5,507 nucleotides of DNA from a virus. Its lineage: Duplodnaviria > Heunggongvirae > Uroviricota > Caudoviricetes. A model generated the notes under the pieces. That model worked only from the letters and a program-made list of their open reading frames with translations. It did not search any database and was not told the origin of the DNA. Made by a program: the position numbers and the translations under genes. Below are positions 1 through 5,507 of the stretch, piece after piece (within the stretch, counting starts at the first letter, position 1; every line of letters begins with the position of its first letter). The stretch is taken from positions 1-5,507 of the IMG/VR virus record IMGVR_UViG_2698536369_000006. One strand, written 5' to 3'.

Positions 1-36
1 ACTTAAAAAACTGCGAAACAGCAGAAGTGAGGTTGC

Positions 37-708
37 ATGAATATCTACGAAAGAATTGATGGCAGCAAATACCGAAATATTTGGGTAGCTGGCGATCTGC
101 ACGGATGCTACACGAACCTGATGAAAAAACTGGAGACGATAGGATTCGACACCAAAAAAGACCTGCTTATCTCGGTTGGCGATTTGGTTGATCGTGGTGC
201 AGAGAACGTTGAATGCCTGGAATTAATCACATTCCCCTGGTTCAGAGCTGTACGTGGAAACCATGAGCAAATGATGATTGATGGCTTATCAGAGCGTGGA
301 AACGTCAATCACTGGCTGTTTAATGGCGGTGGCTGGTTCTTTAATCTCGATTACGACAAAGAAATTCTGGCTAAAGCTCTTGCCCATAAAGCAGATGAAC
401 TTCCGTTAATCATTGAACTGGTGAGCAAAGGTAAAAAATATGTCATCTGCCACGCCGATTATCCTTGTGACGAATACGAGTTTGGAAAGCCAGTTGATCA
501 TCAGCAGGTAATTTGGAACCGCGAACGAATCAGCAACTCACAAGACGGGATCGTAAAAGAAATCAAAGGAGCGGACACATTCATCTTTGGTCATACGCCA
601 GCAGTGAAACCACTCAAGTTTGCCAACCAGATGTATATAGATACCGGCGCAGCGTTCTGCGGAAACCTCACATTGATTCAGGTACAGGGAGAAGGCGCGT
701 GGGCATAA
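37..708 (+). CDS. Serine/threonine protein phosphatase, lambda nin-region PPase type (ORF221/NinI-like; calcineurin-like metallophosphoesterase)
   Basis: 223-aa ORF with ATG at 37 preceded by GTGAGG Shine-Dalgarno 4-5 nt upstream. Contains metallophosphatase signatures GDLHG, GDLVDRG and GNHE. Sequence closely matches what I recall of the lambda phosphatase (…[23 protein letters not shown]…). Stop TAA at 706-708. Confidence 0.9.
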
Positions 709-1187
709 GAGAACTAAACCTCACCAAAGAACAGCACGAGTGGCTGAATGGCTGGCTTGAACTGTGGGGCGCATGGGTTTATTCAGGTCGTCTGGAAAAG
801 CGCATGAGCAGCGTAATAGCTAAGTTCATGGAGAGCGTAGAGCCGGGAAGAGTTATGACAAGGCCAATGTGTAATGATGATGATGGAATGTTGATTTCTC
901 AGGTCGTCGATTCCGTCATGTACATTGACAAGAAAGCCTTCGGCATCCTCCTCAGCTACTACGCTCATGGTTCTTCCAGGCACGCCATTGCATCTTACTA
1001 TCATCGCGTCGCAAGACCTCGCAAGATGTTATGCCGGGGCGGCGGGCGCATTCAAAAACCATCGCTCGCAACCTGTCGACGGGAAGTTGACGAAATCCTT
1101 AATGCCTCGTTGTTTATGATTTACCCGGTTCTGGATAGTGCGTTTAAAAACCGGAAACGTGTAGAGAAAATTAAACATGTAGCATAG
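699..1187 (+). CDS. Q: Late-gene antiterminator Q (phage 21 / 933W-type Q family)
   Basis: ORF in frame 3 ending at 1187. Likely start is GTG at 699 (GGAG/AAGG upstream), overlapping the phosphatase 3' end by 10 nt. Motifs LELWGAWV and [12 protein letters not shown] resemble the conserved N-terminal region of Q21/Q933W-type antiterminators. Position (after nin phosphatase, before lysis genes) is canonical. Start codon is uncertain; the first in-frame ATG (~804) would remove the conserved motif. Confidence 0.75.
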
Positions 1188-1193
1188 AACGTG

Positions 1194-1222
1194 TTGACAT
1201 CATTGAGCAAATGAGCAACACT
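1194..1222 (+). promoter_or_regulatory. Candidate late promoter (pR'-like) immediately downstream of Q
   Basis: Perfect -35 TTGACA at 1194-1199. Only weak -10 candidates follow at 17-19 bp spacing (AACACT / CACTAT). Position right after the Q stop matches where pR'/qut sits in lambdoid phages. The -10 is poor, so this is tentative. Confidence 0.3.
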
Positions 1223-1231
1223 ATTGGCATA

Positions 1232-1274
1232 AGCTGCCGTTAGTGACTCTTAAGTTGCAACGGTGGCTTTTTTT
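1232..1274 (+). terminator. Terminator-like hairpin followed by T7 run (possible tR'-like element or tRNA leader structure)
   Basis: 10-bp stem 1232-1241 (AGCTGCCGTT) pairing with 1259-1268 (AACGGTGGCT), including two G-U pairs. Loop is 17 nt, followed directly by TTTTTTT (1268-1274). The large loop and wobble pairs make it atypical. Confidence 0.3.
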
Positions 1275-1278
1275 ATTT

Positions 1279-1353
1279 GGGTCAGTCGTATAAAGGTCAT
1301 TACGGAAGGCTGTTAACCTTCTTATCGTGGTTCGAGTCCACGCTGTCCCGCCA
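1279..1353 (+). tRNA. tRNA-Asn(GUU)-like, atypical
   Basis: Manual cloverleaf: acceptor 1279-1285 GGGTCAG with 1343-1349 CTGTCCC (one T-T mismatch at pair 4-69). D-arm is GTAT/TTAC type. Anticodon stem GAAGG/CCTTC with loop CTGTTAA gives anticodon GTT at 1312-1314. T-arm CGTGG-TTCGAGT-CCACG. Discriminator G and encoded CCA at 1351-1353. Only 1 nt between acceptor and D-stem by my fold, so identity and functionality are uncertain. Confidence 0.5.
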
Positions 1354-1358
1354 AACAT

Positions 1359-1434
<76 letters not shown>

Positions 1435-1437
1435 TAT

Positions 1438-1512
<75 letters not shown>

Positions 1513-1518
1513 GTTAGA

Positions 1519-1564
1519 GTCTTTCAGTCTGCGATGATGGGAAATCCCGGAGTGACTGAAAGAC
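1519..1564. repeat. Perfect 11-bp inverted repeat (GTCTTTCAGTC / GACTGAAAGAC) with 24-nt spacer containing a GGG-AAAT-CCC mini-palindrome
   Basis: Arms 1519-1529 and 1554-1564 are exact reverse complements. Located 7 nt after the tRNA-Gly 3' end. No U-run follows. Confidence 0.7.
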
Positions 1565-1571
1565 GTTTAAG

Positions 1572-1644
1572 TTATGAATGATCGCTTTTTTTTGCAAAAT
1601 TGCTGTGCAGAAATACTAACCTTCGGGCAGGCGATCATTCATAA
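1572..1644. repeat. Perfect 14-bp inverted repeat (TTATGAATGATCGC / GCGATCATTCATAA) separated by 45 nt
   Basis: Arms 1572-1585 and 1631-1644 are exact reverse complements. Spacer begins with T8 (1586-1593) and contains a CC-TTCG-GG mini-hairpin. Confidence 0.7.
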
Positions 1645-1683
1645 GCACTCTGCTTTTATTCCGATTAACTGTGGGTGGTTTGT

Positions 1684-1712
1684 TGGATAGAGTGCTTTCC
1701 TTACTGTATATA
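1684..1712 (+). promoter_or_regulatory. Candidate sigma70 promoter (alternative late promoter / pR'-like candidate)
   Basis: -35 TTGGAT (1684-1689), 17-bp spacer, -10 TATATA (1707-1712) preceded by TG at 1705-1706. The predicted start lies just before the 1720-1745 terminator, an arrangement reminiscent of pR' followed by tR'. Confidence 0.3.
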
Positions 1713-1719
1713 TTGTTTC

Positions 1720-1745
1720 GCCCGCTTTTGCGGGCTTTTCTTTTC
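1720..1745 (+). terminator. Rho-independent terminator upstream of the holin gene (tR'-like)
   Basis: GC-rich hairpin GCCCGC-TTTT-GCGGGC (1720-1735) followed by TTTTCTTTTC (1736-1745). Confidence 0.65.
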
Positions 1746-1804
1746 AAATCCCTTTCATTTCTCAGTGTAAAACTACGCCATCCGTTATTTGCGGAGGTGA
1801 GGCT

Positions 1805-2020
1805 ATGAAATCCATGGACAAAATTTCAACGGGCATTGCCTACGGCACCTCCGCAGGCAGTGCTGGCTACTGGTTTTTACAGTGGCTTGATCAGGTCAGT
1901 CCGTCACAGTGGGCTGCGATTGGTGTACTGGGGAGTCTGGTTCTGGGCTTCCTGACTTATCTGACAAATCTGTACTTCAAAATCAGAGAAGACAAGCGTA
2001 AGGCTGCACGGGGAGAGTAA
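1805..2020 (+). CDS. S: Class II holin / pinholin, phage 21 S21-type with dual-start motif
   Basis: 71-aa ORF beginning MKSMDKIS (Met1 and Met4 give the S21-71/S21-68 dual start). Two hydrophobic segments ([16 protein letters not shown] and [17 protein letters not shown]) and a charged C-terminus. Strong Shine-Dalgarno GGAGGTGAGG at 1793-1802. Matches my recollection of S21 and E. coli EssD/EssQ. Confidence 0.9.
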
Positions 2021-2024
2021 TTCA

Positions 2025-2369
2025 ATGACTCAAAACTATGAACTGATTGTGAAAGGGATCCGCAATTTTGAGAATAAAGTTACGGTAACTTTAGCGTTAC
2101 GGGACAAAAAACGCTTTGACGGTGAAATTTTTGACCTGGACATCTCGCTGGACCGTGTTGAAGGTGCCGCGCTGGAGTTTTATGAGGCAGCAGCCAGAAG
2201 GAGCATCAGACAGGTCTTCCTGGATGTTGCTGCCGGGTTATGTGAAGGGGATGAGCTGTCGCCGGAAAAGCGCCCCATAATTTTAGAGGCGCAGAATGTG
2301 TGGATAACCTACAAAGGAAAGCTACCGGGAAGAATTACTGGTTCTCTGAAGACTCCGCCGAAATGGTAA
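2025..2369 (+). CDS. Hypothetical protein inserted between holin and endolysin (possibly the DUF1327/YdfR-like lysis-cassette ORF family)
   Basis: 114-aa ORF with ATG at 2025, 4 nt after the holin stop. GGGGAGAG Shine-Dalgarno 7-8 nt upstream. No transmembrane segment. The family guess is from position (between an S21-like holin and a SAR endolysin, as in Qin essQ-ydfR-rrrQ), not from recognised sequence. Confidence 0.6.
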   Translation: MTQNYELIVKGIRNFENKVTVTLALRDKKRFDGEIFDLDISLDRVEGAALEFYEAAARRSIRQVFLDVAAGLCEGDELSPEKRPIILEAQNVWITYKGKLPGRITGSLKTPPKW

Positions 2370-2607
2370 TTTCACCAGCATATTTTTCTTCCAGTAATAC
2401 CGCCAGCCACTTGAAAGAATTTTGTTGTTGCTGGGACCATTTGGGGTTGAGTGATTCAAGCTGGAGCGATGCCAGTGTTGGTTGCATTTGTTCCTTGGGA
2501 ATTGAGAATGCCAGATATGAAAATGCGACAGTAAGGGCATTTACATCATCCCGAAGCCTGGAAATGCAGTCGAGCAACTCCTGTAGAGAAATGGTGCTAT
2601 TGTCCAT
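2335..2607 (-). CDS. Hypothetical small acidic protein (90 aa), antisense to the late operon; no family recognised
   Basis: Minus-strand ORF with ATG at 2607-2605 and an excellent Shine-Dalgarno (AGAGAGGA, 6 nt spacer). Protein-like composition (MDNSTISLQELLDCISRLRDDVNALTVAF…), clearly better than the other frames here. Overlaps the 3' end of 2025..2369 by 35 bp. The upstream TTG at 2613 is less likely as the start. Confidence 0.5.
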   Translation of the reverse strand: MDNSTISLQELLDCISRLRDDVNALTVAFSYLAFSIPKEQMQPTLASLQLESLNPKWSQQQQNSFKWLAVLLEEKYAGEITISAESSENQ

Positions 2608-2621
2608 AAACAATCCTCTCT

Positions 2622-2652
2622 ATTGTATTTAACTATTCCTTGCCTGATTCAA
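2622..2652 (-). promoter_or_regulatory. Candidate promoter for the minus-strand gene 2335..2607
   Basis: On the minus strand: -35 TTGAAT (plus 2647-2652), 19-bp spacer, -10 TACAAT (plus 2622-2627). The SD-ATG follows within ~20 nt. The spacer is long, so this is tentative. Confidence 0.25.
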
Positions 2653-2712
2653 CAGGCCGGGACAGATAAACATATCCAGGGTTCAGAAACCGATAAATCC
2701 TGATAAATATCC

Positions 2713-3246
2713 ATGAGCGCAAAAATCAAATACGGCCTGTCAGCTGCTGTTCTGGCGCTGATTGCTGCAGGCGCGTCTGCTCCTCAAATACTTGACCAGT
2801 TTCTGGATGAAAAAGAGGGTAACCACACTACGGCATACCGCGATGGTTCCGGTATATGGACCATCTGTCGTGGTGCCACAATGGTGGATGGTAAGCCCGT
2901 CATACCGGGAATGAAGCTGTCGAAGGAAAAATGCGACCAGGTTAACGCTATTGAACGTGATAAGGCGCTGGCATGGGTGGAGCGCAATATTAAAGTACCA
3001 CTGACCGAACCACAGAAAGCGGGTATAGCGTCATTCTGTCCCTATAACATTGGCCCCGGTAAGTGTTTCCCGTCGACGTTTTATAAGCGGCTGAATGCCG
3101 GTGATCGTAAGGGTGCATGCGAGGCGATTCGCTGGTGGATAAAAGATGGTGGGCGCGATTGCCGCATACGTTCAAATAACTGCTATGGACAGGTTATTCG
3201 TCGTGACCAGGAAAGCGCATTAGCCTGTTGGGGGATAGATCAGTGA
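2713..3246 (+). CDS. R: SAR endolysin (T4-lysozyme-like muramidase, glycoside hydrolase family 24; RrrD/RrrQ-type)
   Basis: 177-aa ORF. N-terminal weakly hydrophobic Gly/Ala-rich segment ([16 protein letters not shown]) is typical of a signal-anchor-release domain. Catalytic E-x8-D-x-T-like region ([23 protein letters not shown]). Near-identical to my recollection of E. coli DLP12 RrrD. No obvious Shine-Dalgarno upstream of the ATG. Confidence 0.9.
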
Positions 3247-3680
3247 GCAGAGTCGCAGCGATTATTTATACTCTGGTTATCTGCACCATCGTCTGCCTGT
3301 CGTGGGCGGTCAATCATTACCGTGATAACGCCATCGCCTACAAAGAGCAGCGCGATAAAGCCACATCCATCATCGCTGATATGCAGAAGCGGCAACGTGA
3401 TGTAGCAGAACTTGACGCCAGATACACAAAGGAGCTTGCTGATGCTAATGCGACTATCGAAAGTCTCCGTGCTGATGTTTCTGCTGGGCGTAAGCGCCTG
3501 CAAGTCTCCGCCACCTGTGCAAAGTCAACGACCGGAGCCAGCAGCATGGGCGATGGAGAAAGCCCAGGACTTACAGCAGATGCTGAACTCAATTATTACC
3601 GTCTCCGAGGTGGAATCGACAAGATAACCGCGCAGGTTAACTACCTGCAGGAATACATCAGGACGCAGTGCTTAAAATAA
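3243..3680 (+). CDS. Rz: Spanin inner-membrane subunit Rz (i-spanin)
   Basis: Start GTG at 3243 overlaps the endolysin stop (GTGA). N-terminus (M)[30 protein letters not shown] parallels lambda Rz ([31 protein letters not shown]). Has an N-terminal TM segment and a coiled-coil periplasmic domain. GGGGGA Shine-Dalgarno upstream. Confidence 0.85.
3442..3627 (+). CDS. Rz1: Spanin outer-membrane lipoprotein Rz1 (o-spanin), embedded in the +1 frame of Rz
   Basis: ORF fully inside Rz in another frame. ATG at 3442 with AAGGAG Shine-Dalgarno 8 nt upstream. Signal peptide with lipobox (LLGVSAC) followed by a Pro-rich mature region ([13 protein letters not shown]). An alternative start is the ATG at 3448. 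Confidence 0.75.
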
Positions 3681-3715
3681 TTTTAATTTCACTGAAATTT
3701 AACAAGTGACTTTCA

Positions 3716-3747
3716 GGAAAATGCCTCGCAGATGCGGGGCATTTTTG
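3716..3747. terminator. Bidirectional Rho-independent terminator downstream of Rz
   Basis: Stem ATGCCTCGC (3721-3729) pairs with GCGGGGCAT (3734-3742), with one G-U and loop AGAT. Flanked by an A-run upstream (GAAAA) and a T-run downstream (TTTT). Confidence 0.55.
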
Positions 3748-3898
3748 TACCGGTATTTCACCGCGCACCGCAGCGCACAATAAACACCGAACCTGACCCT
3801 TTGGAATGGGCCTTTGAGGATACCAGTTAGTGCTGGCGAGCCTCGGTGGGCTGGTTTCCTGTGCGGCAAAGGTTCATTTCAAAGAAGCAGGCAACGCC

Positions 3899-4447
3899 AT
3901 GAATGAATTAATTGCGAATCATGACTTCGACTTTCGCCAGTTAGTTACCGCAGCAGAAGGTCAACCGGTAACTGACACCTTCCAGATTGCCAGGGCATTT
4001 GGTAAACGCCATCAGCATGTGATTAGGGCTATTAAATGTTTGAGATGTTCTGAGGAATTCTCGACAACCCATTTTTGGGCCGTCGAGAAAATCAATGACT
4101 TAGGGATTTTTGACAAGAAACAGATTTACTACCGCATGGACTTTAGTGGCTTCGTTATGCTGGTTATGGGATTTAACGGGGCAAAAGCCGATGCTGTTAA
4201 AGAAGCCTATATCAATGCGTTTAACTGGATGTCAGCAGAACTCCGTAAGTACAGCGAAAGTTATGAAGCAGAACGTAACGCCGTAATGCTGGAGTACATG
4301 AAAGAGAAGGATGTCGCCAGCATGTCAGGCCGTTTGCTCAATCGCTGGGGGAGAACGAAAAAACCTCAATTGCTTGCAAAGCTGGAACGTCTGGAGAGAC
4401 AGGGACAGTTTTTATTACCGGGATTCGATAAAGGTATTCAAGCCTGA
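3899..4447 (+). CDS. Rha-family phage regulatory protein
   Basis: 182 aa from ATG 3899 (MNELI…). The ORF is open from GTG 3830, which has a GAGGA Shine-Dalgarno 9 nt upstream, so the start is ambiguous. Motifs typical of the Rha N-terminal domain as I recall it: TDTFQIARAFGKRHQHVIRAI and FVMLVMGFNGAKADAVKEAYINAFNWM. Confidence 0.65.
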   Translation: MNELIANHDFDFRQLVTAAEGQPVTDTFQIARAFGKRHQHVIRAIKCLRCSEEFSTTHFWAVEKINDLGIFDKKQIYYRMDFSGFVMLVMGFNGAKADAVKEAYINAFNWMSAELRKYSESYEAERNAVMLEYMKEKDVASMSGRLLNRWGRTKKPQLLAKLERLERQGQFLLPGFDKGIQA

Positions 4448-4472
4448 CACATTATGCGCTGTATCGTCGCCG

Positions 4473-4537
4473 TATTCCCGCATTAACCATGACCGTAGCC
4501 CGACGGGGAATTCCTTCTGCGTGAGTGTGCGGGAATA
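4473..4537. repeat. 10-bp perfect inverted repeat (TATTCCCGCA / TGCGGGAATA) flanking a 45-bp spacer containing GGGGAATTCC
   Basis: Arms at 4473-4482 and 4528-4537 are exact reverse complements. Lies in the convergent intergenic region between the Rha-like gene and the minus-strand small gene. No adjacent U-run on either strand. Confidence 0.6.
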
Positions 4538-4634
4538 ATCAAAAACGATGCACACCGGGTTTTACTGTGCTGACAGACGCAGGGTTACCCTCATAGTCGC
4601 TTTTCCGGTGCGATGGTGGAAGAAACCGGGATGT

Positions 4635-4829
4635 TCATCCATCATCACTTTGGATTGATGTATATGCTCTCTTTTCTGACGTTAGTCTCCGACGGCAGGC
4701 TTCAATGACCCAGGCTGAGAAATTCCCGGACCCTTTTTGCTCAAGAGCGATGTTAATTTGTTCAATCATTTGGTTAGGAAAGCGGATGTTGCGGGTTGTT
4801 GTTCTGCGGGTTCTGTTCTTCGTTGACAT
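4635..4829 (-). CDS. Small ribbon-helix-helix-like protein, YlcI/DUF3950-like
   Basis: 64-aa minus-strand ORF with ATG at 4829-4827. Sequence MSTKNRTRRTTTRNIRFPNQMIEQINIALEQKGSGNFSAWVIEACRRRL has a basic N-terminus, a beta-strand-like RNIRFP and two helices, consistent with an RHH DNA-binding fold. Matches my recollection of DLP12 YlcI, which sits next to the Nu1 homolog nohD. Weak Shine-Dalgarno. Confidence 0.6.
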   Translation of the reverse strand: MSTKNRTRRTTTRNIRFPNQMIEQINIALEQKGSGNFSAWVIEACRRRLTSEKRAYTSIQSDDG

Positions 4830-5027
4830 GAGGTTGCCCCGTATTCAGTGTCGCTGATTTGTATTGTCTGAAGTTGTTTTTACGTTAAGTTGATGCAGAT
4901 CAATTAATACGATACCTGCGTCATAATTGATTATTTGACGTGGTTTGATGGCCTCCACGCACGTTGTGATATGTAGATGATAATCATTATCACTTTACGG
5001 GTCCTTTCCGGTGATCCGACAGGTTAC

Positions 5028-5039
5028 GGGGCGGCGACC
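5028..5039. other. cosN cohesive-end sequence (5'-GGGCGGCGACCT-3', lambda type)
   Basis: Exact lambda 12-nt left cohesive end at 5028-5039. It is preceded by the lambda right-end sequence (…CCGGTGATCCGACAGGTTACG, ending 5027), so cos is in the joined (circular or prophage-internal) form. Confidence 0.85.
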
Positions 5040-5080
5040 TCGCGGGTTTTCGCTATTTATGAAAATTTTCCGGTTTAAGG

Positions 5081-5196
5081 CATTTCCGTTCTTCTTCGTC
5101 GTAACTTAATGTTTTTATTTAAAATACCCCCTGAAAAGAAAGGAAACGACAGGTGCTGAAAACGAGCTTTTGGGCCTCTGTCGTTTCCTTTCTCTG
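5081..5196. promoter_or_regulatory. cosB: terminase small-subunit binding sites R3, R2, R1 with AT-rich IHF-site region
   Basis: R3 (5081-5098) CATTTCCGTTCTTCTTCG. R2 (5135-5148), inverted, AAAGAAAGGAAACG. R1 (5182-5196) CGTTTCCTTTCTCTG. An AT-rich segment at 5102-5125 is consistent with IHF site I1. Arrangement matches lambda cosB. Confidence 0.75.
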
Positions 5197-5217
5197 TTTT
5201 TGGCCGTGGAATGAACA

Positions 5218-5507
5218 ATGGAAGTCAACAAAAAGCAGCTGGCTGACATTTTCGGTGCGAGTATCCGTACCATTCAGAACTGGCAGGAACAGGGAATGCC
5301 CGTTCTGCGAGGCGGTGGCAAGGGTAATGAGGTGCTTTATGACTCTGCCGCCGTTATAAGATGGTATGCCGAAAGGGATGCTGAAATTGAGAACGAAAAG
5401 CTGCGCCGGGAAGTTGAAGAACTGCGGCAGGCCAGCGAGACAGATCTCCAGCCAGGGACTATTGAGTACGAACGCCATCGACTTACGCGTGCGCAGGCCG
5501 ACGCACA
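5218..5507 (+). CDS. nu1: Terminase small subunit Nu1 (5' partial; continues beyond the window end)
   Basis: ATG at 5218 in frame 1 with no stop before the window end, so it is absent from the ORF track. Translation [46 protein letters not shown]… matches lambda Nu1 as I recall it, including the winged-HTH region. Lies immediately downstream of cosB. Confidence 0.9.

Follow-up and report, generated by a model that had tools for sequence, protein, structure and literature searches.

A 5,507-nucleotide stretch of Caudoviricetes DNA (IMG/VR record IMGVR_UViG_2698536369_000006, positions 1 to 5,507; hereafter the window) carries a 90-codon open reading frame (ORF), here called ORF90, on the strand opposite the late genes and between the genes for the holin (S) and the endolysin (R). 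The window is the start of the late region of a lambdoid, phage-21-type Escherichia coli prophage. ORF90 is a genuine accessory gene of the family phrog_2411, carried as 292 bp of optional cargo that separates a chimeric ydfR gene from that for a signal-anchor-release (SAR) endolysin; in our judgement it is probably a moron resembling bor of phage lambda. An earlier note, made from the letters alone, had drawn attention to this part of the lysis cassette, and direct reading agrees with all of its coordinates: the holin gene ends at 2020 and the endolysin gene starts at 2713, both ORFs between them lie where they had been placed (Table 1), the 3' ends of ydfR and ORF90 overlap by 35 bp (2335-2369), and 105 bp separate the start of ORF90 from that of R. 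The strong ribosome-binding site of ORF90 is likewise as described, with AGAGAGGA at 2621-2614 followed by a 6-nt spacer and the ATG.

Conservation of ORF90 and selection on its reading frame

Homologous loci were gathered from IMG/VR (approximately 300), from RefSeq and from one Escherichia ruysiae genome, and 106 distinct S-ydfR-ORF-R cassettes could be aligned nearly gap-free. Substitutions were counted over the 79 ORF90 codons that lie outside the overlap with ydfR. Segregating sites fall on the first, second and third codon positions in the numbers 17, 13 and 34, and the variants comprise 35 synonymous, 32 nonsynonymous and five nonsense changes, against an expected synonymous fraction of 0.225 (P = 1e-6). 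The ratio of nonsynonymous to synonymous substitution (dN/dS) in the aligned cassettes is 0.30-0.34 for ORF90, as compared with 0.10 (S), 0.08 (R) and 0.46-0.50 (ydfR). A second sample, consisting of 80 cassettes selected by YdfR similarity alone, contains 52 carriers of ORF90, 50 of which have it intact. Stops interrupt the minus frame as singletons scattered across loci, and the Shine-Dalgarno sequence (2614-2621, minus strand) retains a GAGGA core in all clades, in the variants AGAGAGGA, CAAGAGGA and CATGAGGA. The codon-position bias is absent among the 81 closest loci (8/11/13), an early result that proved misleading and was resolved by adding diverged clades. ORF90 is a real protein-coding gene whose frame is under purifying selection.

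A plus-strand ORF of 89 codons (2363-2632), whose ATG overlaps the ydfR stop codon (ATGgTAA), mirrors ORF90. Substitution patterns cannot separate the two strands because the mirror frame and ORF90 share wobble positions, and the synonymous excess of the mirror ORF equals that of ORF90. It is open in the window's own clade, with a composition of 20% serine and 8% cysteine. We rejected this candidate on account of its stops in other clades and lineages: one is fixed in a clade of 57 loci, two are fixed in a clade of eight, and in the Citrobacter, Serratia, Sodalis and other homologues the mirror frame contains stops while the ORF90 frame is open.

Family, annotation and predicted structure of ORF90

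ORF90 had been presented in the earlier note as a probable unannotated gene encoding a protein of no recognized family, and neither description holds. The protein matches phrog_2411 (PHROGs v4; function unknown in PHROGs) with an E value of 1.6e-59, residues 1-90 aligning to positions 1-90 of the 90-column profile, and is a member of that family without differences; homologues from Citrobacter and from locus L217 match the same profile. The prokaryotic genome annotation pipeline of RefSeq (PGAP) already calls the gene as a 'hypothetical protein' (WP_000370551.1; WP_000370546.1 is C_RS06730 of strain CFT073) and flags its stop-bearing alleles as pseudogenes. The exact ORF90 sequence is a 'MULTISPECIES' RefSeq protein present on at least 999 contigs, phage Chlobot encodes an identical protein, and of 5426 complete genomes of E. 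coli, 1221 contain the ORF90 DNA, among them CFT073 and ST131 strains. The family and the annotation of ORF90 are thus already known; new here are its wider relatives in the Enterobacterales, its predicted fold, the optional insert with its precise limits, the chimeric make-up of ydfR and a slot that takes up different antisense genes.

Profile searches of 1.8 billion representative proteins, and then of a 5.8-billion set, recovered distant relatives of 80-106 amino acids at 25-40% identity in Citrobacter, Serratia, Sodalis, Chania, Gibbsiella, Chimaeribacter and Acerihabitans. All of these are acidic and hydrophilic, and they have in common the core ELL..I..L...VN.L..AF.YL.F....E....T...L.FES.N. 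ORF90 itself has an isoelectric point of 4.3 and appears to be soluble, with neither a membrane segment nor a signal peptide. Its AlphaFold2 model (mean predicted local distance difference test score, pLDDT, 83) is a bundle of three helices, spanning residues 8-34, 38-52 and 59-77, and residues 81-90 form a disordered tail. Pfam and NCBIfam returned no match to ORF90, and PADLOC-DB 2.0 returned zero families for ORF90 or the ydfR product at E<=1. For the two proteins as a pair, no toxin, antitoxin or immunity domain was detected with Pfam, NCBIfam and PADLOC, and a P0036-based viral scan found nothing.

An optional cargo slot between ydfR and the endolysin gene

We regard ORF90 as optional cargo because empty and alternative alleles exist in otherwise collinear cassettes. 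Among the 80 loci selected by YdfR similarity, 52 have ORF90 in the slot, 24 are empty and three hold other minus-strand genes, so that the gene is accessory in the sense expected of a moron. The empty alleles have 19-24 nt in place of the 292 bp, and their YdfR ends in TPPESQP. At two loci the slot holds 879 nt, which lengthen YdfR to 268 aa (phrog_1085) and bring a convergent minus-strand gene for a 104-aa protein (phrog_1853). At one locus it holds 492 nt, with YdfR lengthened to 183 aa (phrog_2091) and a convergent minus-strand gene for an 88-aa protein (phrog_2572) that overlaps its lengthened YdfR gene by 53 nt (alternative cargos at L264 1201-2331 and L265 1201-1966). The minus-strand genes of the three kinds of cargo are not related to each other; homology between phrog_2411 and phrog_2572 was rejected at an hhalign probability of 0.2%.

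The last nine codons and the stop of ORF90 (2335-2364) are encoded by the complement of sequence that the empty alleles also have. This origin of its 3' end in shared ydfR sequence accounts for the 35-bp overlap and for the disordered tail, and the Citrobacter homologue stops approximately eight codons earlier. Synonymous divergence (pS) and nucleotide diversity are 0.51 and 0.18 for S and 0.36 and 0.11 for R, compared with 0.08 and 0.03-0.05 for ydfR and 0.15 and 0.075 for ORF90. Given the low synonymous divergence of the ydfR-cargo segment, it has spread recently across older, diverged S and R genes.

Downstream of the cargo, a conserved block leads up to R (Table 1). No Shine-Dalgarno sequence was found before the endolysin start, and R in the window, unlike in Qin of E. 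coli K-12, is not coupled to ydfR. The block contains three GATAAA-containing motifs (2664-2674, 2692-2699 and 2702-2711). A perfect 8-nt inverted repeat (2652-2659 and 2733-2740; ACAGGCCG and CGGCCTGT) flanks the endolysin start codon in the late mRNA; approximately 0.15 such pairs are expected here by chance, and it may mean nothing.

The chimeric ydfR gene

The ydfR product scores 142.8 bits against PF07041 (cut-off 25) and is named 'YdfR family protein' by PGAP. The window and K-12 Qin are near-identical from S to approximately 2232, at ydfR codon 69, and from there wholly different until the last 10 nt before R; the C-terminal tail differs from that of K-12 YdfR (residues 73-103). Because the similarity to Qin stops near 2232, we take the window ydfR to be a chimera. 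Residues 1-72 of K-12 YdfR bind the catalytic half of RNase E (Rne-NTD) in bacterial two-hybrid (BACTH) and pull-down assays, and the protein co-purifies with RNA (2026 study, PMC13232886). Judging from the alignment, the window YdfR shares the region that K-12 YdfR uses to bind RNase E. A single-sequence AlphaFold2 model of YdfR was too poor for use (pLDDT 46).

The tail of the window YdfR weakly resembles (BLASTP E 0.005) free-standing late-strand proteins of 62-63 aa from two further prophage lineages (MTLEQ...EKITGSLRAPIKL from one of Citrobacter and MTLEQ...KRLTGDILIPLES from a second prophage), with which it has in common the C-terminal motif (R/K)(I/L)TG(S/D)(L/I)xxP. The genes for these small partners converge on a phrog_2411 gene and overlap it by 14 nt in Citrobacter and by 20 nt in the second prophage. 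The partner family is tiny, being confined to Citrobacter, Salmonella and a few metagenomes.

Genomic contexts of phrog_2411 relatives

The position of the phrog_2411 gene varies among the three prophage lineages: it has S and R on either side in the window, precedes the holin gene in Citrobacter and follows Rz in L220. In all three it is antisense to the late operon. In a Salmonella enterica prophage (L218 3501-3921) the 63-aa partner is intact and phrog_2411 is reduced to a 3' remnant (ending in QQNSFKHLAKELEERLGSSITIL) that is joined to unrelated sequence. Its place before the holin gene of that prophage is occupied by a late-strand gene for an 83-aa protein.

Relatives also occur on their own. 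A stand-alone chromosomal member is located in Serratia marcescens (L204 4001-4282) between dinI and bssS, in the order pyrC-dinI-X-bssS-solA, and another is present in Sodalis. Terminator-like hairpins lie on either side of the Serratia gene, and rne is approximately 2 kb upstream. An E. coli paralogue of 89-92 aa, at approximately 75% nucleotide identity, was found at loci L208-L211 and at L223, the last on an IncF plasmid of strain 0-4. This paralogue adjoins genes for an AIDA-type autotransporter and an AraC/GyrI-like regulator, amid insertion sequence remnants and outside prophages. No antisense partner was found at the stand-alone relatives in Serratia, Sodalis and the E. coli plasmid and contigs.

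Comparison with known systems

The bor gene of phage lambda is a late-region moron that is independently transcribed and antisense to the late operon, beside Rz, and its product is a lipoprotein with a role in serum resistance. Such an orientation antisense to the late genes is classic for genes expressed from a repressed prophage. Like bor, ORF90 is small, accessory, directed against the late operon, directly beside the lysis genes and present or absent among collinear phages. It differs in encoding a cytoplasmic-looking, acidic, helical protein rather than a lipoprotein, in lying between holin and endolysin genes, and in overlapping ydfR, and its promoter and terminator are just candidates. 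A related Salmonella prophage has a Bor gene in the same orientation. IraM and DUF3950 genes, the latter present in the window (Table 1), are likewise antisense nearby.

The essQ-ydfR-rrrQ-rzpQ cassette of K-12 Qin has the same order of holin, YdfR N-terminal domain and endolysin, near-identical ydfR codons 1-69 and the same last 10 nt before the R start. Its YdfR, however, is 103 aa long with another tail, and its ydfR overlaps rrrQ by ATGA, leaving neither a minus-strand gene nor the 343-nt untranslated gap of the window; the suggestion that Qin-type cassettes might conserve the minus-strand ORF thus fails for K-12 Qin itself. In operons of pore-forming colicins, the immunity gene is antisense and is flanked by the colicin and lysis genes. 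ORF90 resembles these operons in geometry, in that a small gene converges on a larger one of variable C-terminus just before a lysis gene. There is no relation in sequence or fold, and the pairing of ORF90 is not obligate, so we would treat the likeness as an analogy only.

Expression signals and a proposed mode of action

As a bor-like moron, ORF90 would form a transcription unit of its own that opposes the late operon, starting at a weak promoter between ORF90 and R and terminating at a hairpin within the ydfR gene. Its product would be present chiefly in the lysogen, and late transcription dependent on Q would override its expression. The gene would be dispensable for lysis rather than part of the lysis machinery, since natural alleles that lack it have the same holin, ydfR and endolysin; its product might instead be a small factor that binds some host or phage protein, although this last step is a guess.

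A permissive position weight matrix (PWM) yielded two weak candidates only, and one of them (Table 1) has hexamers that are invariant in ORF90-bearing cassettes, while the -10 element reads CAGGTT in the empty alleles. The candidate hairpin lies 43 nt past the ORF90 stop, and its stem is conserved in almost all cassettes, without covariation. Stronger terminator-like hairpins follow 70-95 nt past the stops of the homologues in the Citrobacter (L205) and L220 prophages. No terminator in the insert reached the threshold of the consensus scan, and inspection by eye showed no LexA box ahead of either ORF90 or the Serratia homologue beside dinI. Together the promoter and hairpin signals, as predicted, are compatible with an independent transcription unit and are no proof of one. 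The earlier suggestion of a moron accordingly stands as regards a separate gene that opposes the late operon and is present or absent among collinear cassettes, and falls short as regards a promoter of its own before R, since none is convincing.

Several observations weigh against reading ORF90 as a bor-like moron. The consensus scan of 1500-3400 found no sigma-70 promoter at its threshold, and the top PWM match (TTGAAT-19-TACAAT, 2652-2622, minus strand) was rejected for lack of conservation and because transcription from it would begin inside the Shine-Dalgarno sequence. The candidate hairpin is below the terminator threshold of the tool, and its conservation proves nothing because it falls within the ydfR coding sequence. 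Sporadic nonsense and frameshift alleles of ORF90 exist, so that selection on the gene appears just moderate, or relaxed in decaying prophages. A fold search with the ORF90 model returned no informative neighbour, which is why the protein-binding step is a guess. A literature search on ydfR and DUF1327, the Qin lysis genes and the accessions found only the paper on the RNase E interaction, with nothing on ORF90 and no transcript or proteome data for it.

Alternative explanations

That ORF90 is not a gene, its frame staying open through constraint on the opposite strand or because the copies share a recent ancestor, is very improbable. The shared wobble positions and equal synonymous excess of the mirror frame would suit such a shadow ORF, as would the unbiased codon positions of the closest loci and the nonsense and frameshift alleles; the plus frame, however, is interrupted by stops that are fixed in two clades and found throughout the other lineages, distant homologues of like length and predicted fold occur in unrelated contexts, the Shine-Dalgarno sequence is conserved and the AlphaFold2 model is confident. 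Somewhat more credible, but still unlikely, is a cis-antisense regulator in which the minus-strand transcript tunes ydfR or endolysin expression, or lysis timing, through convergent transcription or by pairing with the S-ydfR-R mRNA, the ORF being secondary. In three prophage lineages the gene is antisense to the late operon and its 3' end overlaps that of a late-strand gene, and the insert parts R, here without a Shine-Dalgarno sequence, from the ydfR gene to which it is ATGA-coupled in Qin. Against this, the protein frame is selected, the family is kept at 25-40% protein identity where the DNA is not conserved, and stand-alone members without an antisense partner exist in Serratia, Sodalis and plasmids. 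Rfam 15 gave no match in 2025-2712, the only matches in the window being the three tRNAs. A purely antisense-RNA role, as the earlier note had entertained, is unlikely given the purifying selection on the protein and the stand-alone homologues.

We also doubt that the YdfR tail, or the free-standing 62-63-aa protein, forms an effector and antagonist pair of toxin-immunity type with the convergent minus-strand protein. The convergent overlap is kept in Citrobacter and in another prophage together with the C-terminal motif of the partner, and both alternative cargos join a new YdfR extension to a convergent minus-strand gene. Yet the 24 empty loci retain the same YdfR tail without ORF90, the Salmonella partner persists beside nothing but a phrog_2411 remnant, and phrog_2411 genes stand alone in Serratia and Sodalis, which shows that co-occurrence is not obligate; moreover, no toxin, antitoxin or PADLOC domain was found, and the window's YdfR has no extension past the shared motif. 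More speculative still, and in our estimate a long shot, is an exchange slot after the ITGSLKTPP of YdfR that would accept two-part modules, each a variable C-terminus of a late protein with a cognate antisense-encoded protein (phrog_2411, phrog_2572 or phrog_1853) made in the lysogen as antagonist or partner, while the N-terminal domain docks on RNase E. A moron for superinfection exclusion, defence or anti-defence seems improbable as well: ORF90 is small, acidic and accessory, sits in a hot spot of prophage cargo and has the orientation expected for expression in a lysogen, but PADLOC, Pfam and NCBIfam hold no match and the protein has neither a membrane segment nor a signal peptide. Because chromosomal homologues adjoin housekeeping and stress genes, as in the Serratia pyrC-dinI-X-bssS-solA region, a role in host physiology would fit better than defence.

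Layout of the window

The features of the window are listed in Table 1. By its predicted products the lysis region is a phage 21-type pinholin/SAR-endolysin cassette, with an S21-family holin, an Ala/Gly-rich signal-anchor-release N-terminus on the lysozyme and an Rz spanin. A terminator-like hairpin (1720-1735) follows the tRNA trio directly 5' of S. The DUF3950 gene is a second small minus-strand gene of the late region, so ORF90 is not the sole antisense accessory gene in the window. A 119-aa ORF (5119-5478, minus strand) lies antisense to Nu1 and is probably a shadow ORF; since an antisense ORF of that length also occurs there, the length of ORF90 alone is no proof beyond chance.

Table 1. 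Genes, segments and candidate signals of the 5,507-nt window, numbered from its first nucleotide
Feature	Position	Strand	Details
Calcineurin-like phosphatase	37-708		
Q antiterminator	699-1187		
tRNA-Asn (GTT), tRNA-Thr (TGT), tRNA-Gly (TCC)	1279-1512	+	Between Q and holin
S, S21-type class II (pin)holin	1805-2020	+	PF04971, E 1.4e-35; RefSeq 'class II holin family protein'
ydfR/DUF1327, 114 aa	2025-2369	+	PF07041; GGGAGAG 9 nt 5' of ATG
ydfR N-terminal domain (DUF1327), aa 1-69	2025-2231	+	PF07041, E 4e-42
ydfR C-terminal part, aa 70-114	2232-2369	+	Ends in RITGSLKTPPKW before the stop
Candidate intrinsic terminator	2292-2264	-	GCGCCUC-9 nt-GGGGCGC + UUUUCC; 7-bp G+C stem inside ydfR
ORF90, 90 aa	2335-2607	-	phrog_2411; ATG at 2607, stop 2335-2337
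Optional cargo segment, 292 bp	2365-2656		ORF90 codons 1-81, Shine-Dalgarno sequence and variable upstream spacer; BLAST breakpoints 2364 and 2657
Conserved block	2657-2712		Diversity 0.034 (R, 0.11; 2608-2650, 0.16); also present in alleles that lack ORF90
Weak candidate promoter	2697-2669	-	TTTATC-17 nt-TATGTT; PWM score 7.3, approximately top 0.5% of window positions
R, SAR-type endolysin (R21/RrrQ-like)	2713-3246	+	PF00959, E 1e-24; SAR-like N-terminus by reading; RefSeq 'lysozyme'
Rz	3243-3680		PF03245
Rha-family protein	3899-4447		
DUF3950 gene, YnfO-like, 64 aa	4635-4829	-	Between Rha gene and cos/Nu1
Nu1	from 5218		

Implications

For annotation there is little to learn, since ORF90 is called by existing pipelines. 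Approximately one-fifth of complete E. coli genomes carry the gene, and a single slot in the lysis cassette accepts three unrelated minus-strand cargos. Should the exchange-slot explanation prove true, it would amount to a colicin-immunity-like logic inside a phage lysis cassette, aimed at host RNA turnover. The natural alleles with and without ORF90 provide a clean handle for experiments on this probable moron of E. coli prophages.

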